From Proteromonas lacertae (lineage: Eukaryota), in NCBI GenBank assembly GCA_002245135.1, contig NGBS01000318.1:1-64000 (forward strand): a DNA stretch of 64,000 nt, written 5' to 3'. The notes below the pieces were generated by a model, which worked only from the letters and a program-made list of their open reading frames with translations, did no database searches and was not told the DNA's origin. Shown here one piece after another: positions 8,634 to 58,212 of the stretch; the first letter of the stretch is position 1; each line of letters opens with the position of its first letter. Made by a program: the position numbers and the translations under genes.

Positions 8634-8639
8634 AAATTA
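8634..8639 (+). repeat. Left target-site duplication AAATTA
   Basis: An identical hexamer lies at 34152-34157, immediately outside the right TIR. Confidence 0.85.
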
Positions 8640-8759
8640 ATAATAATATATAGTAAGGGCTACAGACCATTAGGCTCGAATGCTGTGCCACCAAGCTAGA
8701 CCACGAGTAACGCATCTTTTTTTATAACTTGTTTGATCAAGCCTCAATTCTATTTTGCA
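8640..8759 (+). repeat. Left terminal inverted repeat (120 bp)
   Basis: ATAATAATATATAGTAAGGGCTACAGACC...TCTATTTTGCA is the exact reverse complement of 34032-34151. Confidence 0.97.
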
Positions 8760-8929
8760 AAGGTTTGACTTGAACAGTTGGTTTGTGTATCGAACTTCAA
8801 TTATATTTTGAATTTATTTAATTGGCTTGTCCGAATTAAAATTGAAGAAACGTTTCAGAATATTTGTGTTTCGACATTGTACAAAAATCGAAACGGCATT
8901 TTGGACAAATTTGAATTTTTGAATTTCGC

Positions 8930-8931
<2 letters not shown>
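8745..8931 (+). repeat. Internal imperfect inverted repeat, left arm (partner at 10202-10317)
   Basis: TTGACTTGAACAGTTGGTTTGTG...TTATTTAATTGGCTTGT and AATTTTTGAATTTCGCGC match the reverse complement of 10202-10317. This arm has about 70 extra bp (about 8831-8900). Confidence 0.88.

Positions 8932-8932
<1 letters not shown>

Positions 8933-8973
<41 letters not shown>
8933..8973 (+). repeat. Poly-T tract (41 nt)
   Basis: Direct count. Confidence 0.95.
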
Positions 8974-10102: not shown

Positions 10103-10201
10103 TTAATTAATTAAAAAACTATTTTATACACTTACAATTATTAATTACTAATTGGTTTGAATGTTTGTTTGAGTTTTGGGTGAACCATTTTTAAAAATAA
10201 A

Positions 10202-10317
10202 GCGCGAAATTCAAAAATTTAAATTTATCTAACAAGCCAATTAAATAATTTCAAAATAAAATTGAAATTTGATGCACAAACCAACTGTTCAAGTCAAGCC
10301 TTGTCAAAATAGATTTG
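10202..10317 (-). repeat. Internal imperfect inverted repeat, right arm
   Basis: Reverse-complement match to 8745-8830 plus 8901-8931. Confidence 0.88.
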
Positions 10318-10440
10318 AAAATTCAAATTTTTCGAATTTTCTAAAAATTTCTTAATATTCTATTTTTGACATAACGATTGAGAATTAAACTTCAATCGAT
10401 ATTGTTCGAAGTGAAGCGTCACGTATATATTATTTGAGGC

Positions 10441-10522
10441 GATGGCTTGGTCTAACGGTTAGAGGCTTGCCGTTATAGTGAAGAAAACGCGTTCGAGTCT
10501 AAAGACGATTTTTATTTTTTTT
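10441..10522 (+). ncRNA. Candidate Pol III type-2 transcription unit (tRNA-like promoter, not a folding tRNA)
   Basis: A-box-like TGGTCTAACGGT at 10448 and B-box GTTCGAGTC at 10491 (43 nt apart), followed by T-runs at 10509-10522. Confidence 0.4.
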
Positions 10523-10549
10523 AAAGTGTTTTATAATAAATGAAAAAAT

Positions 10550-10596
10550 AGTCGTTTTGCTTTCCCTAAATAAAGAGTCGTTTTGCTTTCCCTAAA
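10550..10596 (-). repeat. Two copies of a 21-bp subterminal motif AGTCGTTTTGCTTTCCCTAAA
   Basis: Copies at 10550 and 10576. The reverse complement (AGGGAAAGCAAAACGA) resembles the array at 33778-33867. Confidence 0.9.
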
Positions 10597-10642
10597 AAAT
10601 AACCGTTAATATAATAATAAAAATTAATTCGTTACAAATTAT

Positions 10643-11593: not shown

Positions 11594-12562
11594 ATGTTAG
11601 TCTCTAATCATCGTGTATATTACTTAAATTCCGATATGGTAATGACTACAGGGACATTTGGAGTAGGGAATAGATACAAAAAGACCTTAGCTTTACCAAC
11701 ATTTGATCAAGATTATACTCATGTGTCATTATTACATGCAGTTGTCCCAAATTCTTTCCCTACTATACAAGCAGAGACAAACGATACGTTACAGTTCTTA
11801 TTTACTGTAGGTTACTATGATAATCTTTGGCCATTACCAACTTCTCCTACAGTAAGTGTTAAAGTTACCATTCCAGAAGGTTTTTATGATGAGAATCAGA
11901 TTTTAAAGTTATTCAATGATAAAATAAGAGAAATTAAATTTACAGATTTTGGAATAGAAACAAATGATGTAGTTCGTCCTTTTGATAAGATTGATGTACC
12001 TATAATAGAAGAAAAAGGAGATTTATTTGGAATAGATAACAATGGTAATAATCGAACAAATCATATAAAAGTAGCAAGTAATATGAATGTTATATATACT
12101 GATGGAAGTCCTTGGTTTTGGATAAAGAAGATTGAAATTATAACAAGTGACTTGAGTTACAAGTTATTAGGTATTCCTAAGAGTAATTATTGGTTATGTT
12201 TTGATAATTATGAACCGCCATATAATGGACATGGATCTGGAGCATATGTATTAATTCCAACACCATTTCCATTTGATCAATTACCATATCGTCCATCACT
12301 TATATGGGTTAATTCAATATCCATTCGTTTAGATATTGTAAACATCATTCAAGATTCAAATGTATTAGAAAATATACCAATAGCAAACCCTGAGTTACCA
12401 TTCATTACATATCAGAATAATGACATACTTAATACTAGCAAAATGTTTAATAATACTTATACCAATGGTCAAATTGCTATTCAGATTACTCAACAAAATG
12501 GTTATGAACTAAATCTTGATAATATCGAGTTTAATTTAGATATTGTTGTCTTTAAAGTCTAA
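11594..12562 (+). CDS. Minor capsid protein (penton, single jelly-roll) candidate
   Basis: YYLNS near the N-terminus, VSLLHAVVPNSF, VTIPEGFY and C-terminal IAIQITQQNGYELNLDNIEFNLDI are typical of Polinton/virophage pentons. It lies directly upstream of the major capsid gene. Confidence 0.8.
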   Translation: MLVSNHRVYYLNSDMVMTTGTFGVGNRYKKTLALPTFDQDYTHVSLLHAVVPNSFPTIQAETNDTLQFLFTVGYYDNLWPLPTSPTVSVKVTIPEGFYDENQILKLFNDKIREIKFTDFGIETNDVVRPFDKIDVPIIEEKGDLFGIDNNGNNRTNHIKVASNMNVIYTDGSPWFWIKKIEIITSDLSYKLLGIPKSNYWLCFDNYEPPYNGHGSGAYVLIPTPFPFDQLPYRPSLIWVNSISIRLDIVNIIQDSNVLENIPIANPELPFITYQNNDILNTSKMFNNTYTNGQIAIQITQQNGYELNLDNIEFNLDIVVFKV

Positions 12563-12592: not shown

Positions 12593-14041
12593 ATGTCTCT
12601 AACTATTCCAAAAGAGCAAAAACACGGTGTAGACGTTCCAGCGATGATGGCCTTTTACCAGTATGTCAAGTTGACACCGATGGAAACTAAATCATTCTAT
12701 CAACTTAAAGATAACACTTATTCAGATGAGATAAGGTTCGAATTAAGTGGTGAGAACATTATAAACCTTGCAAAGTCTTACATTCAATATGATATCGAAA
12801 TTGAAACTACTCCAATTAATAAAGCAGAGGCATTTTCAAAAAATGCTGCTAAAATAGCAGGTGATGCTGATTTGTATCCAAAGTATATAAAAGGAATGAA
12901 AGAAGGATTTGGAATTGCAGCATTTCGTTTATGTAATACTACAGGAACAGATCTAGTCAAGCTTGATGATAATTATGAACACTATAGAGTGTTTATGGAT
13001 GAATTAGTGAGAAAAAGATCAGACATTTTCTATCAATCAAACTATTATGATGGAATTCAATTGAAATGGAATGATGAATATCATGATCATTTAATTCAAG
13101 ATGAGAATGAATGGAATATGGATAAAGATGAAAATACACGAGTTACACCTGCTGGATCAGGTGATAGATATCAACAGTATAAAAAGTCAAAAACAATTCA
13201 TGTAAAGATGTTTTTAGGTAAGTTTTACAATACATTTTTATCAATGAAAAGTGATGTATTTTTTGGTGAAAGAATGTATTTGTGTTTCAATTTCCAACAA
13301 AGTCCTAAATTTGGACAAATTATGGGTTTTAATAATGATAAAGGTAATGAAACAGAAGTAAACTGGCCTGCAGATGGAATAAGACCAGAATCAATCAAGT
13401 TCAAGAATTTTTATTTCTATGCTTATTTGAATAAGGATACTCAATGTAATAACAATACAAGAAGTTATTGTTTATCTAAACCAATACAGTTTAATGATGT
13501 AAAGTGTCATACATTAACAGTAAATCAAGGTGGATCTGGACAATTCAACTATTCCTTTACATTAAATAGTTCAAATGGACCATTCTTACGTTATATTATC
13601 TATAGACCATGGATAGAAGGAAAACAAACAGGAGCAATAAGTAAGGAAGTAGCTGAAAACAGATATGCAATTATTCCTGAAAATGCACAATTCAGATGGA
13701 TGATTAATGATTTCGTGTATCAACCAGACTATTCATTAATGCAGTATTATGATAGTTACATGACTGTACAAGACTATTTCAAAGATTCATGGTTTGATAT
13801 ATTCAAAAAACATATTCCTTTTGAAAAGAAATTCTTTGAAATTTTGAATTTTGGATCAAAAGATTTAGATAATATCAAGAATCAGTCTGGCAGACCTTTA
13901 GCTAGTGACTTAAAAATCACTTTTGAGTTGTCTACACCAGGTACAAATGATTTCACTAACTACAACATAACTCATCGTTTCTACATTGTTACAGGAAGAA
14001 TGTGTACAATCAATGGAAGTGGAATTGTAAGTGTTATTTAA
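12593..14041 (+). CDS. Major capsid protein (double jelly-roll) candidate
   Basis: 482 aa and beta-rich. N-terminal EIRFELSGENIINLAKSYIQYDIEI resembles Polinton/PLV major capsid proteins. It sits between the penton and the ATPase. Confidence 0.78.
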   Translation: MSLTIPKEQKHGVDVPAMMAFYQYVKLTPMETKSFYQLKDNTYSDEIRFELSGENIINLAKSYIQYDIEIETTPINKAEAFSKNAAKIAGDADLYPKYIKGMKEGFGIAAFRLCNTTGTDLVKLDDNYEHYRVFMDELVRKRSDIFYQSNYYDGIQLKWNDEYHDHLIQDENEWNMDKDENTRVTPAGSGDRYQQYKKSKTIHVKMFLGKFYNTFLSMKSDVFFGERMYLCFNFQQSPKFGQIMGFNNDKGNETEVNWPADGIRPESIKFKNFYFYAYLNKDTQCNNNTRSYCLSKPIQFNDVKCHTLTVNQGGSGQFNYSFTLNSSNGPFLRYIIYRPWIEGKQTGAISKEVAENRYAIIPENAQFRWMINDFVYQPDYSLMQYYDSYMTVQDYFKDSWFDIFKKHIPFEKKFFEILNFGSKDLDNIKNQSGRPLASDLKITFELSTPGTNDFTNYNITHRFYIVTGRMCTINGSGIVSVI

Positions 14042-14105: not shown

Positions 14106-14954
14106 ATGAGTAAAATAAAACTAGAGAAATGTAATGACGTTGTTATAACACCAGTAGAATCAGTAGTCAAAGGTACTAAAAAGAGATCGAGAGATAATGT
14201 TCTAGGTTATGATTATTTTGAAGAGCCTTTTTGTAACATATTTATACTAGCTAAGAAGAACAGTGGAAAGACAACACTTATATTTAATATGATACAACAC
14301 TTGTTGAAGAAGAATTATGATCAAACAGTATATTTCTTTGTAGGAACAATTTCAAAGGATATTATTTATGAAAAGATCACTGATATGTTAAAGTACAATT
14401 TAATAGAATACCATTGTTACGATTCAATAGTAAATGAAGATAGAGTGAATGTATTAGAAGCAGTACTAGAAAACATTAAAGAAGTAGATAAAGAAAACTA
14501 TAATTACCCAGAGAACATATTCATATTCGATGATATATCATTCGATTTATCAAATAAGACCGTTTCAAAACTACTCAAATCAAACCGTCATTACAAGTCA
14601 AAAGTAATAATATCAAGTCAATATGTTACAGATTTAACACCATCCGTTCGTCTACAATTAGATTACTGTTTAGTATTTAGAAATCTAAGTTTAGCTAATC
14701 TACACAGTGTTCATAACAGTTTAGATTTGTGGGTAGATTTCAGTAAGTTTAGAGAATATTACAAGTATGCAACCAACTACAGTAATCATTCATTCCTCTA
14801 CATTGATATGTGCAATCATGAATTTCGTGTAAACTTCAATATGAAAATTAAAAATGATAATAACGGATATAAAAGTGATAATGATGATAATACCAGCATT
14901 AGTTCCTCCTCTTCTTCCTCTGATTCGTCCGATACTGATGATGATTCAGAATAA
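14106..14954 (+). CDS. A32-like (FtsK/HerA) genome-packaging ATPase
   Basis: Walker A AKKNSGKTT, Walker B IFIFDD, and the RHY and SSQY motifs of the A32 family. Confidence 0.92.
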   Translation: MSKIKLEKCNDVVITPVESVVKGTKKRSRDNVLGYDYFEEPFCNIFILAKKNSGKTTLIFNMIQHLLKKNYDQTVYFFVGTISKDIIYEKITDMLKYNLIEYHCYDSIVNEDRVNVLEAVLENIKEVDKENYNYPENIFIFDDISFDLSNKTVSKLLKSNRHYKSKVIISSQYVTDLTPSVRLQLDYCLVFRNLSLANLHSVHNSLDLWVDFSKFREYYKYATNYSNHSFLYIDMCNHEFRVNFNMKIKNDNNGYKSDNDDNTSISSSSSSSDSSDTDDDSE

Positions 14955-18762: not shown

Positions 18763-19233
18763 ATGGCTAAGAAAAGTAAGAAGAAATATCGCAAGTGTGT
18801 TGTAGGAAAAGGTTTCTGGGGAGATTTAAATAAAGGACTGAAAGATACTAAAGTAATATCATCAGGTTTAAGTATGATTCCAGGATGGGCTGGTAAACTT
18901 ACTTCAGGAGTTGCTAAGTTATTAGGTTATGGTCGTAGAAGGCATAGAAAGAGTAGAAAAGGTGGTTCTTCAAAATGGTCAGAACTAATTAAGAAATATG
19001 GCAAATCAGGCAATAAGTTATTAAGCATAAAAGCTGTTGGTGGACCTGATTCATACTTTAAGAAAACAACTCAAGGTAGTGGACTTTCAATAGCTACAAA
19101 ACATTGGATTAAAGGACCTGGTGGAATTTATAAAGGAAAGACAGGTTCAGGAAGACGTCGTCATAGAAAAAGTAGTCGTAGTGGTAATAATGCTCTTAAT
19201 CGTTATCCTGATAATAAGATAAGAGTAGTTTAA
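18763..19233 (+). CDS. Basic virion core protein precursor with adenain-type GxG/GG sites
   Basis: VVGKG-FW, LLGYG-RRRHRK, RKGG, QGSG and TGSG-RRRHRK; K/R-rich overall. Confidence 0.72.
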   Translation: MAKKSKKKYRKCVVGKGFWGDLNKGLKDTKVISSGLSMIPGWAGKLTSGVAKLLGYGRRRHRKSRKGGSSKWSELIKKYGKSGNKLLSIKAVGGPDSYFKKTTQGSGLSIATKHWIKGPGGIYKGKTGSGRRRHRKSSRSGNNALNRYPDNKIRVV

Positions 19234-19291: not shown

Positions 19292-19606
19292 ATGGTTTTA
19301 GGTGGTAGAAGACATAGAAGACATCGAAGAAGACATCAAGGTGGTTCTTGGAAATCAGTGTGGGGTAAGATCAAAAATGGTGCAACTAAAGCCTTTCATT
19401 GGGCTAAAGATCATAAGATAGCATCAAAGATCGCAAAAGAGTTTGGTAAAGATGGTCTAGCAGATGGATTAGAAAAGATAGGATTTGGTAGACGTAGAAG
19501 AAGACATGGAAGAAGAGGTGGAGCTAGAATGCCATTCAATGGAGGTGGTAGCAATCAACAAGCTTTACTTAATGCATACTTGAAAACAAAAGTTGCACGT
19601 ATGTAA
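19292..19606 (+). CDS. Arg-rich core protein with an adenovirus pVI-like amphipathic helix
   Basis: VLGG-RRHRRHRRRHQGG-SWKSVWGKIKNG, IGFG-RRRRR and RRGG. Confidence 0.72.
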   Translation: MVLGGRRHRRHRRRHQGGSWKSVWGKIKNGATKAFHWAKDHKIASKIAKEFGKDGLADGLEKIGFGRRRRRHGRRGGARMPFNGGGSNQQALLNAYLKTKVARM

Positions 19607-21618: not shown

Positions 21619-24600
21619 ATGACTGCTCCAACAAAGCGTAAGCATAAAGAAAAAGAATCAGTGGACTTTGACAATCCATCCATCTATCACAATGCGTTGA
21701 AAAGAAAATTGAAGAAAATGATTTATGATAGAGCATCTTCAAATAAGAAGGTCAAGTTAGATTTAAGTCATATGGCTAACCCAACAAGAGCAGTTGATAA
21801 AGGTAATGCTACAAATGAATTAGAGATTTACGATCCTTATACAAAGAATATGGTTAAAACATTTGGTGATGACTACGATGTAACATTTGATGATAATAGT
21901 AAAGATAAGCCAATGAATCCAAACCTCAATGCCACCAAGAACAATTACATGACTGATGAAATGAAGTATAAGTTGTACATGAGTGGTATTACTGATCAGT
22001 ATGGAAGGTATTATAGGAATATAGGTCAGTTTAATAAACCTTATTCAAATTACTATGGTGATCCTACAAACTTAACTAATATTTATCAAAATCCTTTTGG
22101 TCCTCCTAATCCTTATCAACAATTGCAACAAGGATTATATCAAGATCCAGTAACAGGTCAATGGTCTATGAGTCAGTGGAACAATCCTGCTCAGTACAAT
22201 ACTCAATCATATATAAATAGTCAGAGATGGAATAACAATAGTTTAGATAGTAACTATGAAGTAAAACAGCAATTACAGATAAAAAATGCTGCATTAGAAG
22301 ATGCAAAGAAAACAATTGAAAGAATGACTGAAGAACAACAGAAGACTTTATGGCATCATATTAATGAAACATTTAAAGGTACAACTTGGTGGGATTGGGG
22401 TACATGGGGTGTTAAATTTTTAATGTGTACTTTAGTTTTAGGTGGTATTGATATAGCATTCAAATATGTATTCCCTAATCAATTAGGTGTTCTATTATCT
22501 GGTATATTTAATATGGGTGTTAGATCAAGTGATTATTGTGCAAAGTTATTTGGTATATCTCAAGCTAATGTACAATATGCTTCATTCTTTGGATCATGGT
22601 TACCCACAACATACCAATTCATTAAAGCAGGATGGCAAGGAGGTGTAACTGGTTTAATGGATTTTGCAGTTAATCAGTTAAGAAATGTATGGAATTTCAC
22701 CAAGAACTTGTTCACTGGTTTCTTCAATTCGGTCAAGAGCGTTTGGAGCTCGATAACCGACGGCCTGCCTTGGAGCTCTGGAAGCACTGAAGATTCTGGT
22801 CCTACGGATGTTACAAAGTTATTTAGTAGTAAATATGAAACACCCCCTTCTTCAGTACCTTTAGCTTTACCAGCTCCAGAAGCTCCCCAACCTATAACAG
22901 CTCCAGATAAACAGCTGGTTGTCTACGGGGATTCAAATGCTACAAATACTACAGGTACATTAAACGGCGCAGGAAAGAAGCATGTAAGCTTTGGTCCTAA
23001 ATACGGGGGGAGCTCTGAAGCTAATCCTGTATACAACGCAAATATGGATGGAACAAATCCACCCACGGCGATTGCCGTGGGTGGATACGTCCATCCATAT
23101 TTTCTTCAAGAGTCTGCTCAACCTCCTGTAGAGGGATATGATATGGGTTATACATGGAGACACTTAGGAAGAGGTTTAGATTCAATAATGGGTAAAGGAA
23201 AGTTAGACAAGTATAGAAGACATAAACATAAACATAAGTTATTAAAGAAGCTTCCACGGAGGCATCTCTGTCATAACAAGAGATTATTAAAAAAAGGTGG
23301 TGCAAGTCTTATACCACCAGGTTATGTAACAGAACCTCCAGAACCTTCAGCTTCAAACAATGGTGTAGTAAATGTTGGTTACTATTATCCTCAAGGTAAA
23401 AATATTCAATTCTGGAATGGTTTGAGAAAACTATTTAATGCTGCAGATGCTGCACATGTAAATCAAGGACAAATGTATGAACCTTCAAGCTTGAATGATT
23501 ACAATTTAAATATGCCACAACATCCTTTCAATGAAGTTGGTTGGGGTGATATAGGATGGGGTACTATAAGAAGTTTAGATCCTAAAGCAAGAACAGAATT
23601 TGCAGCACAACTTGCAAACGATGGTGCTCAACAAGCAAGACAATTTAAACCAAAGTATTACTATGACTGGGATGAATTTCTTCACTTTCAAGATAAAGTG
23701 TATGCAGATCATTCAAGTGATCCTGATTATTATTTAAACAAAGCAACATGGAAATATAAACCTATTACGATTGATCCAACTAATGGTGCAAGTAACTTCA
23801 AGTATTTAGGTAATCCAAAATATGTTAATGAACAAGATTTTGTAACATATGATTGGGGTGATAATAAAGTAACTGATCCTTTAGCTAGATTTAATCCAGC
23901 CTTTGCTAAAATGAATGCAGAGGATATAAGAGCTGCTCTTAATCCAGGTATATCATCAAGACTAAAAGATCCTTTTCATTTAAACAAATCTGATATTGAA
24001 TACCAAGAGAAAGTTGGTTTACAGCAAGAAGTATTAAACAATGATTATACAATTGGACTTAATAATATGTATAATAACATGAAAGATAACAAATTGGATA
24101 AAGCGTACAAATGGAAAGCATATTCACAACAGCTTGGAAGAAGACTAAGATCAGATGATGAAATTAAAGAGAGAGCTGATCTTAATAGACTTCTTAGTAT
24201 TGATCCTGCTTTAGCTGAGAAAGCAAAACAATTACATGATATAGAAACATGTGAAATAGATGAAAATAGAAGAGTCATAATTCCAGATGAACAAGCATTT
24301 ATAAAGGATAACATCATTCAACATGAAAATACTCCTGAAAAAATTAATCATGAATTGAATGATAAAATGTTAGGTCATAAAGTTCCTGTTGATTGGAAGG
24401 ATGGTGATATGCAGGAAAAGATAAAAATAGGTTGGGAGTTACTTAAAAATGCCTGCAGTCAATGGAAAGAATTTGAAGGTAGTCAGTTCCAGAAGGCACT
24501 TCAATCACTGAATGAAGGTGACTTCATAGAGTTCGGTCATAACTTATACTTGTGTGTGAAGAATATTTTTAGAATTTTCCCTATCATATTTTATACATTC

Positions 24601-25866
24601 AAAAATTATTTACATGGTGGTGTCACTCCTGATATGGTTGAAGTTGATAATGCTATGCAGTATGCTAACTGTATTATAATTACATGCATAGCATTTTGGT
24701 TATGGAAGAAAGGGAAGTTAGGAAATTTTGGATTCGTGACAGTGTTATGGTTCTACATATTTGATTACTATACTATAATACAAAAGATAACTGGTAATCG
24801 TTTACCTGACATAACTACCTTAGCGAATAACAATTATGATACAGTGAGTAAAATGTTACCTACAGCACTTCAAAATTCATGGTTACCTATGCAATTCATA
24901 TACAATTGTGGTACTTCATTCTTATTCAACTCACATCCTTATGTTAAAATATTAGCAAATGCTGCACCCTTCTTTTTCAAATTTGCAAAGTTCGGTAAGT
25001 TAGATACTAAGAATGGAATTACAGGAATGATAATGTCACTACTAAGTGGAGGTAAAACAAAAGGAATGAAAGGTTTCTTAGGTAAAGTAGGTACATGGGG
25101 AACAGTACTTAGTGCCTTCGGTGCTTGTGTTGGATTGATAGTACCTAGTGCATTATCTACATTTTTAAGTACAGGAACTGTTCCTCAGAACAATCCTGTA
25201 TTCGATCCTAACAATACACTCAATACTCCAAATGGTTTATCTAACTTCGTGAGTAGTGGATTACAACTTCAGGAAATATGGCAAATAATGAAAGCATTAG
25301 GTTATGCAGGTAAAGGTAAGAATAAACTATGTTCACGAAGGATACTTTTGTCTAACATCAATAGTAAAGATGCATTATCGAACTTTGATATTGAAGAAAT
25401 TATTCAAAAAGAATTCAATGATTTTGACAAGAAGTTCAAAGGTTGTTTCTGTTGGGATGAATTGGTACTTCCTATACCTCATAAAATGGATCAGTGGGGA
25501 ATCATAATCAATACACTGACTACAAAAGCAAAACCAGATAGTGTAGGTCATTGGGTAGCTTTAGTAGTAGATAACAAAAAGAAGATGTTCATGTACTATG
25601 ATTCTTTTGGTGAGGATCCTCAACACTTGAGTAATTTCAAAGAATGTTTGAAGAAGTTTAAGAAATTTCATGAAAAACCATATCAGTTAAAAATCAATGC
25701 AGTTCAGAACCAGAACAGTAATACAAACAATTGTGGTTTTTTCGCAATCAATTTTTTGAACGATATATTAAATAGAAAAAGAACATTCAAGCAGGCAACA
25801 GATTTTAATACAGTAGTTGGTGAGAAAAGAGTAGCAATGATGAAAAAAGAGTTTGGAATAGTATAA
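21619..25866 (+). CDS. 1415-aa polyprotein-like membrane protein with a C-terminal adenain-like (clan CE) cysteine protease
   Basis: C-terminal GIIINT...GHWVAL...YYDSFG...QNQNSNTNNCGFFAINFL (His-Asp-Gln-Cys). Several hydrophobic segments and internal GxG/GG motifs. Confidence 0.88.
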   Translation: MTAPTKRKHKEKESVDFDNPSIYHNALKRKLKKMIYDRASSNKKVKLDLSHMANPTRAVDKGNATNELEIYDPYTKNMVKTFGDDYDVTFDDNSKDKPMNPNLNATKNNYMTDEMKYKLYMSGITDQYGRYYRNIGQFNKPYSNYYGDPTNLTNIYQNPFGPPNPYQQLQQGLYQDPVTGQWSMSQWNNPAQYNTQSYINSQRWNNNSLDSNYEVKQQLQIKNAALEDAKKTIERMTEEQQKTLWHHINETFKGTTWWDWGTWGVKFLMCTLVLGGIDIAFKYVFPNQLGVLLSGIFNMGVRSSDYCAKLFGISQANVQYASFFGSWLPTTYQFIKAGWQGGVTGLMDFAVNQLRNVWNFTKNLFTGFFNSVKSVWSSITDGLPWSSGSTEDSGPTDVTKLFSSKYETPPSSVPLALPAPEAPQPITAPDKQLVVYGDSNATNTTGTLNGAGKKHVSFGPKYGGSSEANPVYNANMDGTNPPTAIAVGGYVHPYFLQESAQPPVEGYDMGYTWRHLGRGLDSIMGKGKLDKYRRHKHKHKLLKKLPRRHLCHNKRLLKKGGASLIPPGYVTEPPEPSASNNGVVNVGYYYPQGKNIQFWNGLRKLFNAADAAHVNQGQMYEPSSLNDYNLNMPQHPFNEVGWGDIGWGTIRSLDPKARTEFAAQLANDGAQQARQFKPKYYYDWDEFLHFQDKVYADHSSDPDYYLNKATWKYKPITIDPTNGASNFKYLGNPKYVNEQDFVTYDWGDNKVTDPLARFNPAFAKMNAEDIRAALNPGISSRLKDPFHLNKSDIEYQEKVGLQQEVLNNDYTIGLNNMYNNMKDNKLDKAYKWKAYSQQLGRRLRSDDEIKERADLNRLLSIDPALAEKAKQLHDIETCEIDENRRVIIPDEQAFIKDNIIQHENTPEKINHELNDKMLGHKVPVDWKDGDMQEKIKIGWELLKNACSQWKEFEGSQFQKALQSLNEGDFIEFGHNLYLCVKNIFRIFPIIFYTFKNYLHGGVTPDMVEVDNAMQYANCIIITCIAFWLWKKGKLGNFGFVTVLWFYIFDYYTIIQKITGNRLPDITTLANNNYDTVSKMLPTALQNSWLPMQFIYNCGTSFLFNSHPYVKILANAAPFFFKFAKFGKLDTKNGITGMIMSLLSGGKTKGMKGFLGKVGTWGTVLSAFGACVGLIVPSALSTFLSTGTVPQNNPVFDPNNTLNTPNGLSNFVSSGLQLQEIWQIMKALGYAGKGKNKLCSRRILLSNINSKDALSNFDIEEIIQKEFNDFDKKFKGCFCWDELVLPIPHKMDQWGIIINTLTTKAKPDSVGHWVALVVDNKKKMFMYYDSFGEDPQHLSNFKECLKKFKKFHEKPYQLKINAVQNQNSNTNNCGFFAINFLNDILNRKRTFKQATDFNTVVGEKRVAMMKKEFGIV

Positions 25867-25883
25867 AGAAATTAATTAATTAA

Positions 25884-26234
25884 TTAATTTTTACTTTCTA
25901 ATTCTGTTGTTTTCTTAATTTCTTCTTCATGTTGTTTCAAAATATTGTGTAGAACAGGAACTAACTCTTCTATTGCTTTATCTAACTCTTCTTTAAGACA
26001 CTGTACAGATAATCTCTTACTCTCTAAACGATTCATTAATTCAAACACTTGTTCATCCATACCTAAATTGTATGCTTCATTGAGCTTCTTACAAGTTACT
26101 ATTATATTACCTGCTTTCTTTAATGCATTCTTATACTCCAAGCTACCATCATCTTTATGATTGATGTAAGTGCTGCACAACTCGTACCACATATCAAATG
26201 CTGCCTCTGCATTTTCTTTTAACATCATATCCAT
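25884..26234 (-). CDS. Viral hypothetical helical protein
   Basis: 116-aa ATG-initiated ORF. Confidence 0.65.
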   Translation of the reverse strand: MDMMLKENAEAAFDMWYELCSTYINHKDDGSLEYKNALKKAGNIIVTCKKLNEAYNLGMDEQVFELMNRLESKRLSVQCLKEELDKAIEELVPVLHNILKQHEEEIKKTTELESKN

Positions 26235-26737: not shown

Positions 26738-28030
26738 TTATACAATTGTATCATCACCTTTTTTGATTCTGGGTCTTTCAAGAATACGTCTAAAATGAGT
26801 TTCAGGATCTCTTCTAGCAACTAATTGTAACTCATAATGTTTGAATCTATATCTAGATACATCAGGATCCCAATTACCGTTTATATCTCCTAATACATAA
26901 GAGTACCTGTTTTTATGTCTAATACGATATATCTTATCTGACCAATAAGTTCCTTTATCCATTTTTCTTCTTTGTTCATGAAACCTAACTAAATCTCCAA
27001 CTTGAAATTTTGTTTTTAATCTTTGTTCATTATTGAAATTGTATTTAACTGATTCCATTAACATTCTGTTTTGTAGTTTAGGACTATTGTATACTTCGTT
27101 AGGTGTATAATCTCTCAAACTTGATAAAGGTTTGTTATTATAATCATAAACAGTTTCTTGTACAATTTGATTGAAACGTGACAACCATCTCTGATCAATG
27201 ATTTCTCTTCTATCGTTTCTATCTATATTAGCTTGAAACTCTGGTGCATCTATACCTAAATCTATTAAATGTTTATATAATAATTTCTTTACAAGACTTA
27301 CAGATCTTTCCAATACCATTTCTATTCTATGTTCTGATGGCATCTTTTGAAAGAATGTAATTCCTTCTTGATCTAATAATGGTTTGATTGCATTGAAACT
27401 ATTTTGCATATCACACAAGACACTTACTACACGTCTTTTAGATACTACTTGAGAACCATCTTCATTTGTTTTAAAATACCATGCTCTAAAAGCACTTTCA
27501 ATACTTGGTCCTTTTTCATCACGTAATGGGATTGCCCATACTTTTCTGGAATTCATTTCTATCAAATATAAGTAAGGATGATAAGGTAAAAAGTAAACAA
27601 CATCCATTTGGAAGTATCCAGGCTTCTTGATACTTGCAAAAGGTAAATCTTGATTGTATTTAAAATCTACTATTTGACGACCAGGCTTTCTTCTTAGATA
27701 CTCTCTAACTACATCATAAGGTGGTGGAACATCATTAAGTTCTGCTGCTTCTTGTGTTAGTTTAATAAATTGTTTTTCACTTAAATAGTAATACTTATCA
27801 TAAAGTCTATCTAGATATTCTCTATATTCATCGATCTGTCTGGATATTTCATCATTTTCATATGGATTTGGTCTTGGATTATTCTGTATTGACGGTGGTG
27901 CATTGTTAAAATTCCTCGCATAATTTTGCTCATCTCTTGAGTCAACATGTCTATAGCCTGGTGGCAACTCTTGAGCTGTATCTGGATTTGGGTAAGAGTA
28001 AGACTTATTATAAAAATAATTAGCAAGCAT
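26738..28030 (-). CDS. Retroviral-type (rve, DDE) integrase of Polinton type
   Basis: FQMD, SRKVWAIPL, VLCD, LERS, YNNKP..L...TP, KFQVGDLVR, WSDKIYRI and YELQ. Confidence 0.9.
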   Translation of the reverse strand: MLANYFYNKSYSYPNPDTAQELPPGYRHVDSRDEQNYARNFNNAPPSIQNNPRPNPYENDEISRQIDEYREYLDRLYDKYYYLSEKQFIKLTQEAAELNDVPPPYDVVREYLRRKPGRQIVDFKYNQDLPFASIKKPGYFQMDVVYFLPYHPYLYLIEMNSRKVWAIPLRDEKGPSIESAFRAWYFKTNEDGSQVVSKRRVVSVLCDMQNSFNAIKPLLDQEGITFFQKMPSEHRIEMVLERSVSLVKKLLYKHLIDLGIDAPEFQANIDRNDRREIIDQRWLSRFNQIVQETVYDYNNKPLSSLRDYTPNEVYNSPKLQNRMLMESVKYNFNNEQRLKTKFQVGDLVRFHEQRRKMDKGTYWSDKIYRIRHKNRYSYVLGDINGNWDPDVSRYRFKHYELQLVARRDPETHFRRILERPRIKKGDDTIV

Positions 28031-28089: not shown

Positions 28090-31000
28090 CTAATTAAAGA
28101 CATTATTATAATTATCGTACATATTTCTAGCAGCTTCACTTTCATTTGGATCACGATTCAATAAGTATGGAACTGAGCTGATTCTAGTTAAATAACATCT
28201 TTTAATATCAAATATTGTAAATGCTAATTTAGGTACACGAACTGTATACAATACTTGTTTTGCACTTCTGAAACTGTACTGATCTACATATACTTTTTGT
28301 AAATCTCTACTATCTAAAATATTAGTGTAATAATCATAATCACATGTCTTTACTCTATAACCTTTAGATACACCTTTTGCTCTTGAATCAGATTTAAACA
28401 AGTGTATAGGTCCATCCACTCTCTGTTTTTCATAAGCATACATCTTTGCTTTCAATCCACAGAATCTTGTTATTGTGTATAACTGATCACTTTTGTTCTC
28501 TTCCATTTTAAGTAAGTTAAGTTCACCTGTTCTTTGATAGTTTTGATATCTGATACCTCTTTGCTTTAGATAATCACAATTAATATTACCAGTATCCATA
28601 CAACCTTGAATTGTTAAATCATCAGCAATATCTCTGTAAAAGTCTTTTGTAGCAACTCTGAAGATAAAAGAATCTGTATCTGTCATCAGTAAAGTAAGAC
28701 CATCTCTATATTTTCTGTATAATTGTCCATACCAAAACTTTGCCATTAAATACTTTGATTGACAGAGAATAGCCATTCCAATATAGCTTGGTTTATCAAT
28801 TGCACATTTATACTTCTTAAACTTACACACTCTTAAGTCACATCCATCAATTGATACAAAACCTGTAAAGTATGGATTACTTGTACACTTTAAGAACTGT
28901 TCTTCACTATTCACCAACTTACTTCTACATCTATTCTCTGTATTTTCACATGTCTTACCATATGCACTGTTAAGGATTAGTTTAAACGTATCTGCTTCAG
29001 CATCTCTATGTGCTGACTTTGCAGCCTTCCTTAATAGATGACACTGCATCACGAAATCATAAGCATAAGCTGTTTCACAAAAACTAATCACTCTCCATAC
29101 TTTGTTTACTTTATAACCTAACTTCACAGCATAGTTCAGATATTGATAATGAACAACATAGTGATACTTCCTACTCAAATCGCATATTATTCTTGGAGTG
29201 TTATTCTTCAATTCTCCATTCTTATCCACCATACCTAATTCTATAGCCCATTGCTTCTGTTCTTGTGACAAGTCTCTAAAGTATATCATCTTTCTCTCAG
29301 GGAATAAAGGATACTCTGAAAATCCACAACGATCTGGTGGATCTATATCAACTTCTAATATATAACCTCTACTCTCTGGATCTTTCCACAACTTCTGATC
29401 TTCTGGATTTGATGAATGCATTATATCTTCATAAGGTTTCATTTTCTTAATGACATCTATATAGATTTCTGGTTTCTCCCATCTGAAATCTTTATATGGT
29501 AACTTCATTGATGCCATTGTAGAAGGATACAGAGAATTATAATCCACATACATAATATAGGATTCTCTTTTTGGTGGGATTGCATGAAGATCTTCAAAGA
29601 ATGGTGGATCCATATAATGGTTCTTGGCTTCAGCCTTTCTCATTGATCCAATCATTGAAATACCTCCAATCAATCCTTTTCGAATGAAATCATACTTGTC
29701 TTGATCAGCTAACAATTCAATCTTTACATTACACCTTCTAAGAAATATAGACCATGCTAAACCTGGACAACTAACATGCCAACATGGATCTAATATAAAA
29801 TGCTTAAACACTACATTTCTGAAATGGTCAAACACACTTGTAAGAGTTAATACATCCATTGCTAAATAGAATAAGTTATACTCCATTAGATCATTCATCT
29901 CCAATAACTTCCATAATGCTTGACAGGAATCATAAATATCTTGTGGTATTTCTTCTTCCTGTTTCAATTTAGACTTGAATGCTTCTCTTGGTGGTAACTC
30001 TTTTGTATTGTATAACTTATCTATATGATCAACATATTCGTAAGGGAAGTGACCTTTCTGCAATCCCCATTTCATCATGAAATCATTGACTGTCCAATCA
30101 TGGTCTTTTAAACACTTTTGTATCTTTGTATCTTCTCTTACATACTGGTATACAGGATGGAATAACTTTTCATATTCACCACCTGATTCAGCTTCTATCT
30201 TTAAGGATTGAACTATACTATCTAGTGATGAAGACATAAACTGAAAGCTATCAATGAAGTGTAGTTTGTTAAACTTTATCATTAAGAACTTATTGTCAGT
30301 CTTTAATAGAACTGATAACTTTGATCTATACTTTCTTTTATTATTATTCATTGGCTGAGTTGTTATTGGTTGAGATGTAACTATGTTTCCCATTTCTTCT
30401 TCTAAACCAAGATCTTCAGCTGTTCTAGGTGATAAGTATTCTTCTCTACTATGTAACATATAATATAACTCATTAAATGCTTCTTCATTGTTGGGATCGT
30501 TTTCATCTACTATTTCAATTGTATTTGGTGGTTCTATTGGTAATGGTATTTCTTCTTCATCTTCATAATCTTCTTGAGTTGATATATCTACTAATCTATC
30601 TTCTTCTTCTTCCTCTTCTTGTTTCTTTTCTTCTTCAATACCTCTATTATATTCAGTTAATCTTTCATCAACAGTTGTTGTAGTATCTGGTATTGGTATT
30701 GATGGTTGTGGTGGTTGTTGTATTGGTTGTTGTTGTTGTAATGATACATTCCACTCTGCTTCCATTTCTTTATCTAATTTTGATAATCCACGGATAATGA
30801 AGTTATTATCATAGTTCTTACTATTGTGTGCAATACAAGGTATTTGCAGATGTTGTAAAGAACAATGCCAATTACAGTTACTACATAATGTAGCAAGATA
30901 TTTTCCAGTAAAATGGTCATGGTGTCTTGTGCGTCTTTTATTTTTATCATTTTCATCAAATGGAGTGTTACACCACATACACTTTGTTATTTTTCTATGA

Positions 31001-32946
31001 ATTGGTATATATGTACTTTCATCCAAAGGCTTTAACTCTCCACTCTTATATTCTTCATATTTCGATAATACATACTCTTCTATTTCTACAAACTTTCTGA
31101 CCAATTCCATTTCCAAGTCTTCAGGATCTTGTTGTGGACCAAGTTTACCAAAGAAAGTTTCTTCACTGATAATATCTGGATATCTTGAACTTATATGTAT
31201 GCACCAACTACTTAACACATGTCTACTAAATGCACCTTTTGCACCAGGTATTGCTTGTGAAGGATCTATTGGTACTTGTATTACTTCTGTATCCCAATAT
31301 AAGACCACTGGAATCATTTGCATGAATTTGAAGTTATGGAATTCCAAGAAAGTATCAGGTGGTGGGAATTGACGAATGACTCCTCTCTGTAATTGACAAC
31401 TGGTTGAATTATGTAGTTTGAATGCTTGATCTGTTGATAAGGTACAAAAGCAGTATGGACATCTAGTGTAGTAATTATGACAACGCTTATTGTATGGTGC
31501 AAGGAAGGCTTCTAACTTTGTTATTGTCATGAAGTGTTCTTTATAAAACAGTATGTTGACATGTGGGTAGTGTAGCATCTTATCTATTGAAGTTCCATAC
31601 AATGGTATTGGTTCTTTATCCACAATTGTAAATATATTGATAGTGACATGATTCATTTGTTCAAACACTTCTATTCTACCACTATCAGTGATAGGATCAA
31701 TAGGAAACTTCAAACATGTTATATCCATTCTATAAACATACTCCTTATACTTCATAGCTCTATTTCTATGATCCTTAAACTCCATATGATGTAATCCTGC
31801 TGCAACACTATATATAAAACACATACTTTCAGCTTCCTTACTATAATTGGTTAAGTTGATTAAACACTTTCTTCTTACTAAACTTTCAGGTAATAATATA
31901 CTGACATTGTCTGTAGCTGATCCAGTACTTAATGATGTTCTCATCATAATCATTTCCACTAGAGCTATATGTTTATACTTCAAATCACTTCTTTCTGTAT
32001 TGAATATATTATTGAAATCTCTTCCCATTATTCTATTCAATTTTTGGCCAACACTTCCTAATTCACTTACAGTAACTGACTCTGGATTAGTCTCATAGGT
32101 TTTGTAACATAATGGATCAGTTCCTTCAATATCTATAACATTGGATCCAACATATGCAACTCTGATTCTGAATTGAACTTTGGCATGTTCAAAATGAGTT
32201 GTATTGAAATAGTTTCTCAATGCTTTCATATACTCTGATCTAGGATCTGTAACTTGTAACCATATAGCTTCATACTCTCTACATAATGGATCATCACTCC
32301 AATCATGAGAATAAGTTTCTTCATACCTTTCACTTGAACCATGAACAACATCTAAAACATATCTACGAAGATCAAATGGCATTTCTTTTAATCTTTCAGG
32401 ATGATTCTCAACAACATCTAAAGCTAACATTGCTTCTCTTCTAACTCTTTGATCTTCTTCACTAACAGGAGCATCTGGATGTGTTTCTTGTGGTGGTGGT
32501 GGTTGATCATCGTCTACAAGTGGAGATAGTGTTGGAGTAATCTCTTCAGGAGGAGTATCTGGTAATTGACTATCTGGTATCTCAGTTATTCTTTGTATCT
32601 TTGGTGGTGGTTCTTCAATTACAACTGATGAACTCGTTCTCTGATTAACTGGTGTAACATAACCTGGTTGAGCTGTAGTTGTTGAAGATGTTTGAGGTGG
32701 TGGTGGTGGTGCTGAACCTGTTGAAGGTGGAGGCATGATCCCTCCTGCTCCTCCATATACTGGATAAGGTGGTGGATAATACATTGGTGGAGGTGTTGGA
32801 GGAACATAATAAGGTTGGAACCAAGGATTGAAATAATTAAGAGGCATCATGGGTGGGTTACCTGGAGCTGTACCTTGTTGTGGCTGTTGTGAACTTGGTT
32901 GATTATAACCATACGGATTATAACCATAAGGATATCCTGGATACAT
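28090..32946 (-). CDS. polB: Protein-primed family B DNA polymerase with a terminal-protein region, vOTU-like, C2H2 and EndoVII/HNH-like domains
   Basis: Exonuclease motifs YWDTE, HNSKNYD and YLAMD. Polymerase motifs YVDYNSLYP, KLILNSAYGK, TDTDS and KMY. Also CFIYSV...HF (OTU-like), CPYC...H...C and CMWC...HHDHFTGKY...CSNCN. Confidence 0.96.
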   Translation of the reverse strand: MYPGYPYGYNPYGYNQPSSQQPQQGTAPGNPPMMPLNYFNPWFQPYYVPPTPPPMYYPPPYPVYGGAGGIMPPPSTGSAPPPPPQTSSTTTAQPGYVTPVNQRTSSSVVIEEPPPKIQRITEIPDSQLPDTPPEEITPTLSPLVDDDQPPPPQETHPDAPVSEEDQRVRREAMLALDVVENHPERLKEMPFDLRRYVLDVVHGSSERYEETYSHDWSDDPLCREYEAIWLQVTDPRSEYMKALRNYFNTTHFEHAKVQFRIRVAYVGSNVIDIEGTDPLCYKTYETNPESVTVSELGSVGQKLNRIMGRDFNNIFNTERSDLKYKHIALVEMIMMRTSLSTGSATDNVSILLPESLVRRKCLINLTNYSKEAESMCFIYSVAAGLHHMEFKDHRNRAMKYKEYVYRMDITCLKFPIDPITDSGRIEVFEQMNHVTINIFTIVDKEPIPLYGTSIDKMLHYPHVNILFYKEHFMTITKLEAFLAPYNKRCHNYYTRCPYCFCTLSTDQAFKLHNSTSCQLQRGVIRQFPPPDTFLEFHNFKFMQMIPVVLYWDTEVIQVPIDPSQAIPGAKGAFSRHVLSSWCIHISSRYPDIISEETFFGKLGPQQDPEDLEMELVRKFVEIEEYVLSKYEEYKSGELKPLDESTYIPIHRKITKCMWCNTPFDENDKNKRRTRHHDHFTGKYLATLCSNCNWHCSLQHLQIPCIAHNSKNYDNNFIIRGLSKLDKEMEAEWNVSLQQQQPIQQPPQPSIPIPDTTTTVDERLTEYNRGIEEEKKQEEEEEEDRLVDISTQEDYEDEEEIPLPIEPPNTIEIVDENDPNNEEAFNELYYMLHSREEYLSPRTAEDLGLEEEMGNIVTSQPITTQPMNNNKRKYRSKLSVLLKTDNKFLMIKFNKLHFIDSFQFMSSSLDSIVQSLKIEAESGGEYEKLFHPVYQYVREDTKIQKCLKDHDWTVNDFMMKWGLQKGHFPYEYVDHIDKLYNTKELPPREAFKSKLKQEEEIPQDIYDSCQALWKLLEMNDLMEYNLFYLAMDVLTLTSVFDHFRNVVFKHFILDPCWHVSCPGLAWSIFLRRCNVKIELLADQDKYDFIRKGLIGGISMIGSMRKAEAKNHYMDPPFFEDLHAIPPKRESYIMYVDYNSLYPSTMASMKLPYKDFRWEKPEIYIDVIKKMKPYEDIMHSSNPEDQKLWKDPESRGYILEVDIDPPDRCGFSEYPLFPERKMIYFRDLSQEQKQWAIELGMVDKNGELKNNTPRIICDLSRKYHYVVHYQYLNYAVKLGYKVNKVWRVISFCETAYAYDFVMQCHLLRKAAKSAHRDAEADTFKLILNSAYGKTCENTENRCRSKLVNSEEQFLKCTSNPYFTGFVSIDGCDLRVCKFKKYKCAIDKPSYIGMAILCQSKYLMAKFWYGQLYRKYRDGLTLLMTDTDSFIFRVATKDFYRDIADDLTIQGCMDTGNINCDYLKQRGIRYQNYQRTGELNLLKMEENKSDQLYTITRFCGLKAKMYAYEKQRVDGPIHLFKSDSRAKGVSKGYRVKTCDYDYYTNILDSRDLQKVYVDQYSFRSAKQVLYTVRVPKLAFTIFDIKRCYLTRISSVPYLLNRDPNESEAARNMYDNYNNVFN

Positions 32947-33721: not shown

Positions 33722-33777
33722 ATTAAATGCTTAATCATAATATCTTATACTATGATATGAATTGGTGTTTATTATAT

Positions 33778-33867
33778 AGGGAAAGCTAAATCGATTACAA
33801 ATTAAGGGAAAGCAAAAACGATTATTAAGGGAAAGCTAAAACGATTATTAAGGGAAAGCTAAAACGA
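33778..33867 (+). repeat. Subterminal tandem array, four copies of AGGGAAAGC(T/A)AAA(A/T)CGA
   Basis: Units start at 33778, 33805, 33828 and 33851. Confidence 0.92.
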
Positions 33868-34031
33868 GTGTAGGTGGGTATAAGTGCAAGAATGAGTGTA
33901 ATTGCGAAAATGTGTAACGGTTGGCCGTCGGTTATTTCTGAGTAGTGTAACCGACGCGTAACCGAAAGTGTAACCGTTTGCAACCGTTAGAATTCCGTTA
34001 TGTCCAACCGTTATTGAATAAATTAAGATTA

Positions 34032-34151
34032 TGCAAAATAGAATTGAGGCTTGATCAAACAAGTTATAAAAAAAGATGCGTTACTCGTGGTCTAGCTTGG
34101 TGGCACAGCATTCGAGCCTAATGGTCTGTAGCCCTTACTATATATTATTAT
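34032..34151 (-). repeat. Right terminal inverted repeat (120 bp)
   Basis: Exact reverse complement of 8640-8759. Confidence 0.97.
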
Positions 34152-34157
34152 AAATTA
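34152..34157 (+). repeat. Right target-site duplication AAATTA
   Basis: Matches 8634-8639. Confidence 0.85.
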
Positions 34158-57941: not shown

Positions 57942-57990
57942 TTTGAAGATTTCTTTTGCTTTATGTAATCTATTTCATTAAAACTTATGT

Positions 57991-58063
57991 TCCCTTGTAG
58001 TCTAGTTGGTTAGGACAAGCGGCTCTCACCCGCTAGACCCGAGTTCGAGTCCCGGCGAGGGAA
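57991..58063 (+). tRNA. tRNA-Glu (CTC)
   Basis: Acceptor stem TCCCTTG/CGAGGGA, anticodon arm AGCGG-CTCTCAC-CCGCT, T-loop TTCGAGT and a downstream T-run. Confidence 0.95.
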
Positions 58064-58212
58064 TAATTTTTGTCTTTTTCATTTATTATTTTTCTATGAA
58101 ATAGTTTTTATTCATGATATAATATAATAATTTTAAGGGTTTGTTTTTTTGTTTTATAGTTGTTTGTGTTGAAACACCAATCTCAAAAATATAGTCGTTT
58201 CATAATTTAGAA

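Follow-up and report, generated by a model that had tools for sequence, protein, structure and literature searches.

What is a perfect, GC-rich hairpin doing in the middle of a polyprotein gene? The question is raised by a window of 64,000 nucleotides from Proteromonas lacertae (contig NGBS01000318.1, forward strand), where the first-pass annotation had marked positions 22720-23130 as a GC- and CpG-rich structured island. It had read this island as a second code laid over the open reading frame, such as a structured RNA element or a single-stranded DNA hairpin that serves as a packaging or second-strand signal. Our analysis points elsewhere. The hairpin is a real coding palindrome, which in this lineage was likely created by a polymerase that switched templates, and it is likely tolerated and not required, a reading that we hold at about even confidence.

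The polyprotein gene lies in an apparently intact element of 25,512 bp (25.5 kb; 8640-34151). Perfect terminal inverted repeats (TIRs) of 120 bp bound it (left, 8640-8759, + strand; right, 34032-34151, − strand), flanked by an identical 6-bp target-site duplication (TSD; 8634-8639 and 34152-34157, + strand). TIRs and a 6-bp TSD are typical for Polintons/Mavericks. The polyprotein ORF (21619-25866, + strand) encodes 1,415 amino acids and ends, according to Pfam HMMs, in an Ulp1/adenain-type cysteine protease (Peptidase_C48, PF02902, E 8e-7, above the cut-off; Peptidase_C5, E 0.0013). On the − strand lie a protein-primed family B polymerase (pPolB; 28090-32946; DNA_pol_B_2, PF03175, E 2.7e-21) and a predicted retrovirus-like (rve) integrase (26738-28030; ESM Atlas feature score 0.96). 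All ten best Atlas matches with a family assignment belonged to the rve family or clan; a search of this ORF with the Pfam rve HMM gave no match. The major capsid protein (12593-14041, + strand) is a predicted double jelly roll. Its AlphaFold model is of moderate confidence (mean pLDDT 54.8), the best Foldseek matches were the capsids of Sputnik (E 3e-8), iridovirus, PBCV-1 and mavirus (E 3e-8 to 4e-7), and its relatives in Logan are 45-68% identical. A likely packaging ATPase with a P-loop (14106-14954, + strand) gave sub-threshold Pfam matches (ResIII, E 0.002; FtsK, E 0.021), and ORF 11594-12562, without a Pfam match, is a minor capsid protein candidate from its position alone. The tRNA/tmRNA search found no such gene within the element.

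From pPolB, the predicted rve integrase and double-jelly-roll capsid, the Ulp1-type protease and the TIRs with TSD we conclude that the element is a Polinton/Maverick-type integrated virus. It belongs to a group from which few members have been sampled, and its polyprotein ends in a protease. By the gene set as defined in PMC11161782, it shares the polymerase, the predicted integrase, the protease, the predicted capsid and probably the ATPase with Polintons/Mavericks (Polintoviricetes) and with MELD viruses of non-animal eukaryotes. In contrast to these, the protease is here the C-terminal domain of a large polyprotein, and the relatives found are Logan proteins only. A MELD virus with unrecognisable virion proteins is mentioned for Blastocystis data in PMC8502044.

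Some further features of the element's genes are recorded here. The polymerase carries a long Pro/Gln-rich N-terminal extension and, at residues 652-693, a weak endonuclease VII-like match (E 0.007). Two small, very basic ORFs (18763-19233 and 19292-19606) contain repeated Gly-x-Gly followed by Arg runs; judged by the cleavage consensus, they resemble core proteins processed by the protease. Similar motifs occur in the polyprotein too, one of them within the island.

Both 13-bp stems of the hairpin were found exactly as annotated. The outer stem pairs 23040-23052 with 23090-23102 and the inner stem 23057-23069 with 23074-23086, around a GATT loop. The structure spans 63 nt and 26 base pairs, all of them Watson-Crick with zero G-U, and a 4x3 internal loop separates the stems. 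Within the 64-kb window, the inner stem is the sole perfect stem of at least 13 bp (loop up to 15 nt), and the hairpin is the lowest-energy 100-nt fold, with −57.7 kcal/mol compared with −34.7 for the best fold elsewhere (2,556 windows). Stability was alike on both strands, as RNA (−45.9/−47.8) and as DNA (−28.7/−29.0), and none of 200 dinucleotide shuffles matched the hairpin as RNA or DNA on either strand.

Shuffling of synonymous codons gave the same picture. The hairpin was unmatched (0/500, z about −4) in each of three nulls, i.e., gene-wide, local and uniform codon use, the mean of which was about −25 kcal/mol. Under the strictest null, with GC fixed position by position and just 15 hairpin codons free to vary, it was matched in 2/300 shuffles on the + strand and 0/300 on the − strand (z −2.4). 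This margin is smaller because the peptide itself fixes much of the hairpin pairing. In the inner stem, codon position 1 pairs with 2 and 3 with 3, in the outer stem 2 pairs with 3 and 1 with 1. Pairing hence crosses amino-acid-determining positions, and synonymous choices alone cannot make the hairpin. An assembly fold-back artefact is unlikely, given the two stem registers, the internal loop and the open frame.

We compared the region with its protein relatives. A HMMER search with polyprotein residues 200-1290 returned seven proteins, all from Logan, which align in pieces at 33-54% identity; a profile search of the region returned one of them, P0008, alone among 6,610 candidates. P0008 is identical at 68 of 140 aligned residues upstream and at 35 of 62 downstream. 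In between lies a Pro/Ser/Thr/Gly-rich linker (22786-23037, + strand), where 12 of 57 aligned residues (of 84) are identical and conservation is lowest within everything that P0008 covers. Of the 138 residues of the island peptide, 95 align with P0008 and 29 of these are identical, and we hence rejected a foreign in-frame insertion or intron.

Across the hairpin, conservation changes from arm to arm. The peptide of the left outer arm is not conserved in P0008 (0/6 identities), that of the left inner arm partly (2/4 across 23056-23067), then follows a gap of seven residues, and the peptide of the right outer arm is conserved (5/7 across 23089-23109). The seven codons missing in P0008 (23068-23088, + strand) comprise the last 2 nt of the left arm, the loop, the inner right arm and 2 nt more. 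When all placements of a single 7-residue gap between the anchors were scored, this one was best with a weight of 0.37, and placements within the hairpin core (23062-23094) totalled 0.88. In the multiple alignment P0013 is gapped here too, though its alignment is loose.

We propose that the linker hairpin is more likely a fold-back copying error than a conserved RNA or DNA signal, as far as can be judged from the sequences compared. A fold-back event would have copied the 13-nt left arm in reverse, adding 21 nt in frame. With this first hairpin present, a second switch on the other strand would have replaced the left flank by a complementary copy of the ancestral flank on the right, with the register shifted by one base. 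The linker would have absorbed the new residues, and the frame would have stayed open to the protease. Since the stems stand in registers one base apart, this course calls for two events or a compensated indel; a one-base indel after a single perfect repeat would disrupt the reading frame. Strand-displacement replication exposes single strands, as established for adenovirus-type replication, and such replication by the protein-primed polymerase would favour template switches.

Several findings argue for this course of events. The gap in P0008 fits the loop and the right inner arm, and conservation of the outer arms is asymmetric, as if one arm were ancestral. Moreover, the pairs are all Watson-Crick and stability is strand-symmetric, as in a DNA inverted repeat, and the element has a second local inverted duplication at its left end. 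The weak conservation of the linker, the pairing across amino-acid-determining positions and the inability of the P0008 and P0013 peptides to encode the stems (see below) fit as well. Against template switching stands that only one homologous protein, of low identity, can be aligned across the region; the one-arm-ancestral pattern and the two switches are thus read from one protein alignment, and this relative may be structured differently at the same place. Two events are also what one would expect if selection had favoured a longer stem. Hairpins can impede viral replication, yet the apparently intact element with its perfect TIRs suggests that this one has come through it.

Template switching is known to rewrite codons in genes, namely in yeast (PMC8604942). 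The yeast repeats there are alike in their perfect arms, in a multi-codon change in one arm and in amino-acid replacements without adaptive need. They differ from our case, where there would be an in-frame gain of 21 nt and a homogenisation of arms, both deduced from the protein alignment alone. Inverted repeats in open, apparently functional ORFs with both arms translated are also found in Nematomorpha mitochondria. Those palindromes are numerous, up to 284 bp long and encode conserved residues in both arms, according to PMC6649704, whereas here a single palindrome of 2 x 13 bp has one conserved arm. Most likely, the hairpin thus adds one more case to a kind of mutational product that is already known, in a new element of a known class. 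If so, it would show cleanly how a fold-back replication error brings new peptide sequence into the linker of a viral polyprotein, and it would caution that a strong hairpin within a gene need not mean a second code.

Alternatively, the region might be a selected structured RNA or single-stranded DNA element, i.e., a pause or recoding aid, a small-RNA precursor, an antisense non-coding RNA or a replication or packaging signal. The 26 perfect pairs in two registers would fit such a role, but the relatives do not, and we consider it fairly unlikely. Pairing in the relatives was checked on proteins only, and the peptides of P0008 and P0013 cannot encode the stems. The homologous 40 residues allow at most 15 Watson-Crick pairs in P0008 (18 with G-U) and at most 19 in P0013, compared with 26 in the hairpin. 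Both values fall into the range of 29 background segments (11-21 encodable pairs). An Arg/Ser-rich stretch elsewhere in P0013 reached 25 encodable pairs, so that encodability alone is no proof of structure.

The searches for known signals bear on the same alternative. The Rfam check that had been suggested for the island gave no family at threshold; matches were sub-threshold and to miRNA-like hairpins (35 bits against a gathering score of 79). For a −1 frameshift, an X XXY YYZ heptamer is expected shortly upstream of the structure; we found no canonical slippery heptamer in 22281-23289, and near-matches are common in the gene (64 in 1,416 codons). Likewise, no match to the B-box consensus was found in 22400-23400. 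The proposed location near the genome middle holds loosely, since the relative position of the hairpin along the element is 56.6%, with a distance of 1.7 kb to the midpoint. Ends of the element's genes have no stems of at least 13 bp and thus show no polyadenylation pattern of the hairpin-rule type. Palindromic hairpins of this rule occur in Mimiviridae, and the present element, as an AT-rich relative of large DNA viruses, offers a similar setting, but according to PMC4402537 those hairpins end transcripts, whereas here the hairpin is GC-rich and stands mid-ORF. RNA-virus polyproteins also contain cis-elements that appear as local synonymous-site anomalies within the ORF; in PMC4227794 these are defined by conservation across many genomes, in contrast to our case, known from one sequence. 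Of the element's gene ends, only the convergent junction right after the polyprotein stop codon shows a comparable feature, a 9-bp all-A/T palindrome (25869-25890).

DNA-level comparisons were sought as well. We found no DNA homologs in viral contigs, nor in the metagenome contigs searched with the capsid alignment. BLAST against phages and plasmids returned merely 23-27-nt matches (E 0.4-0.5). The 19 matches in bacterial genomes were confined to the 11-bp core and varied in their loops and flanks; they were rejected as chance palindromes. The protease alignment found seven metagenome loci at 28-35% identity; in the two that we inspected, the protease stands alone in a short ORF (227 and 412 amino acids, respectively), and they were discarded as not being polyproteins. 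The 227-aa ORF (L001:9779-10462) resembles the element's protease at 35% in its C-terminal part and lies on a contig that is phage-like by its ORF translations, so that the contig may be chimeric or the domain may have been captured.

The remaining structure of the island was less distinct. The complementarity that had been noted between 22872-22888 and 23007-23022 exists (duplex −24.5 kcal/mol), but these segments do not pair on the mRNA strand (probability at most 0.001); they pair on the opposite strand only, with a probability of 0.94-1.0. A further stem suggested for the GAGCTC sites near 22746 and 22773 had a probability of 0.0 on the mRNA strand, and GAGCTC is self-complementary. Neighbouring stems tile the region (22971-22998, 23001-23032 with G-U pairs, and 22771-22878), which counts against template switching, as do the scores of the non-hairpin windows given below. 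In favour of selected structure, neighbouring + strand hairpins that include G-U pairs are built from rare codons (z −2.8, 3/400; window picked post hoc), and the opposite strand forms well-defined long stems, including 22872/23007 (z −3.1, 0/150 local shuffles).

Without the hairpin, the island scored z −0.9 (+ strand) and −1.8 (− strand) against dinucleotide shuffles and −1.5 to −3.1 against local codon shuffles. Non-hairpin windows in a grid of 30, anchored at a boundary of our choice and with 24 local shuffles each, reached z −2.5 to −4.6, with −3.8 as the best value outside. Under the strict, GC-position-preserving null the irregular, borderline stems of the linker and the other non-hairpin windows gave z −1.75 to −2.9, and 2 of 52 background strand-windows (20 shuffles each) were lower, at −3.1 and −3.2, which speaks against selected structure. 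Only the hairpin clearly exceeds chance; the values suggest that the remaining folding of the island lies within the background tail. From the proposed second code, the excess of the hairpin over synonymous shuffles has hence been borne out, while the protein relatives spoke against conservation and the folding of the rest was not clearly above background; a role gained in this lineage alone may exist.

Codon choice does shift to G/C-ending and CpG-containing codons as annotated, not in a single island but in two patches with a normal stretch between. G/C-ending codons numbered 20 in 22691-22790 (5.1 expected, z 7.9), 6 in 22791-22920 (6.0 expected) and 22 in 22921-23130 (10.1 expected, z 4.3). 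CpG observed/expected was 0.8 in each of the two patches compared with 0.0 and 0.13 in the flanks. In the 3' patch, the surplus of G/C and CpG is in part due to hairpin pairing. The same gene has further GC3-rich patches near 21900 and 24480 (z 3.7-3.9, 0-1 CpG).

No other synonymous anomaly in the genes of the element is as strong as the 5' patch (22696-22785, + strand; z about 8), which template switching leaves unaccounted for. The patch tops 1,351 sliding windows across these genes in GC3 excess, and in its best segment (22696-22776) 19 of 25 codons end in G or C. Its folding shows no excess over local shuffles (z +0.24), and its peptide is partly conserved, with 10 of 21 aligned residues identical to P0008. 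A −1-frame ORF of 33 codons from ATG to TGA (22689-22790) coincides with the patch but was not supported as an overlapping gene. The −1-frame run of 38 codons is open in 25% of GC3-matched resamplings and has no Pfam match, and the same gene has runs of 40, 38 and 36 codons elsewhere.

Such patches could be recombinant tracts from a related element of a GC-richer host, with the non-hairpin structure as a by-product of composition. The gene is indeed a patchwork of GC3 levels (0.12, 0.65, 0.14, 0.36, 0.13 and 0.24), and the 5' patch is sharp-edged with its folding no higher than in local shuffles. However, viral, metagenome, phage and plasmid searches found no donor, the patches are short and separated by a normal stretch, and the perfect hairpin would be left unaccounted for. 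We regard this origin as very unlikely for the island as a whole.

For the 5' patch, sequence features hint at an internal promoter as the best lead, with a recombinant tract as the alternative. The island would then act as regulatory DNA within the gene, probably in the form of an internal promoter, where binding by host transcription factors would preserve C/G and CpG in the 5' patch, as in the CpG-rich subterminal regions; a shorter transcript that encodes the C-terminal part would have the downstream stems as its leader. Such a role is compatible with a mutational origin of the hairpin, but doubtful as an account of the island. It would fit the CpG contrast between the patches and their flanks, although true non-coding regions show a CpG observed/expected of 1.5-2.2. 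It would also fit a 13-mer (22753-22765, + strand), a candidate DNA cis-site, which recurs exactly, in reverse-complement orientation, at 33923-33935 within the YAACCG cluster of the right subterminal region. This match was reached by 0/300 synonymous and 2/300 codon-order shuffles. Among 52 tiles of 450 nt, five beat it, namely four low-complexity runs and the TIR. On the other hand, the motif was first spotted by eye, and it is a single site compared with 11 strand-wise matches at the right end.

Protein starts are ambiguous in this respect. Two relatives, P0013 and P0007, start at a Met aligned with the island. This lends little weight to an internal promoter because several database proteins start internally, P0010, P0006 and P0015 among them, and starts in the database are unreliable. 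Moreover, the N-terminal part stays fused in P0008 and P0012. A fuller version, i.e., a regulatory island with an internal promoter that shares the subterminal motif and a structured RNA leader that ends in the 26-bp hairpin, so that the C-terminal structural/protease part is expressed separately, appears unlikely to us. If a promoter or leader did exist, it would offer a first clue to how Polintons balance structural protein against the maturation protease. Among the results listed by our literature searches, no hairpin, internal promoter or other cis-element was described within Polinton genes.

The right subterminal cluster (33915-34013) is non-coding and CpG-rich (observed/expected 1.94) and holds 11 of the 28 strand-wise YAAC(C/G)G matches of the window. 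The YAAC(C/G)G motif presumably resembles Myb sites. It forms part of subterminal arrays at 33775-34013 and, mirrored, at 10440-10610, both with YAAC(C/G)G clusters, short direct repeats and a CpG observed/expected of about 2, which are candidate origin, promoter or packaging signals. E2F-like sites occur at 8924, 10209, 11242 and 16679. At the left end, 8744-8940 and 10193-10318 form a nested inverted duplication (87 nt at 90% and 65 nt at 75%) around two small ORFs and a run of T 41 nt long (8933-8973); the left array begins past it, near 10440-10610.

The element is inserted between two divergent kinase-like ORFs, one of which begins 4 nt past the right TSD. To either side of the insertion, kinase genes are accompanied by host duplications of 82-94% identity (6500-6603/34550-34655 and 8319-8551/52654-52887). 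The host DNA has 24-26% GC, kinase genes and intron-like GT-AG stretches of 34 and 32 nt, which makes an AT-rich microbial eukaryote likely; some Blastocystis lineages have 21-23% GC and introns of about 30 nt or longer, according to PMC12129017. A host tRNA-Glu(CTC) gene is located at 57990-58064.
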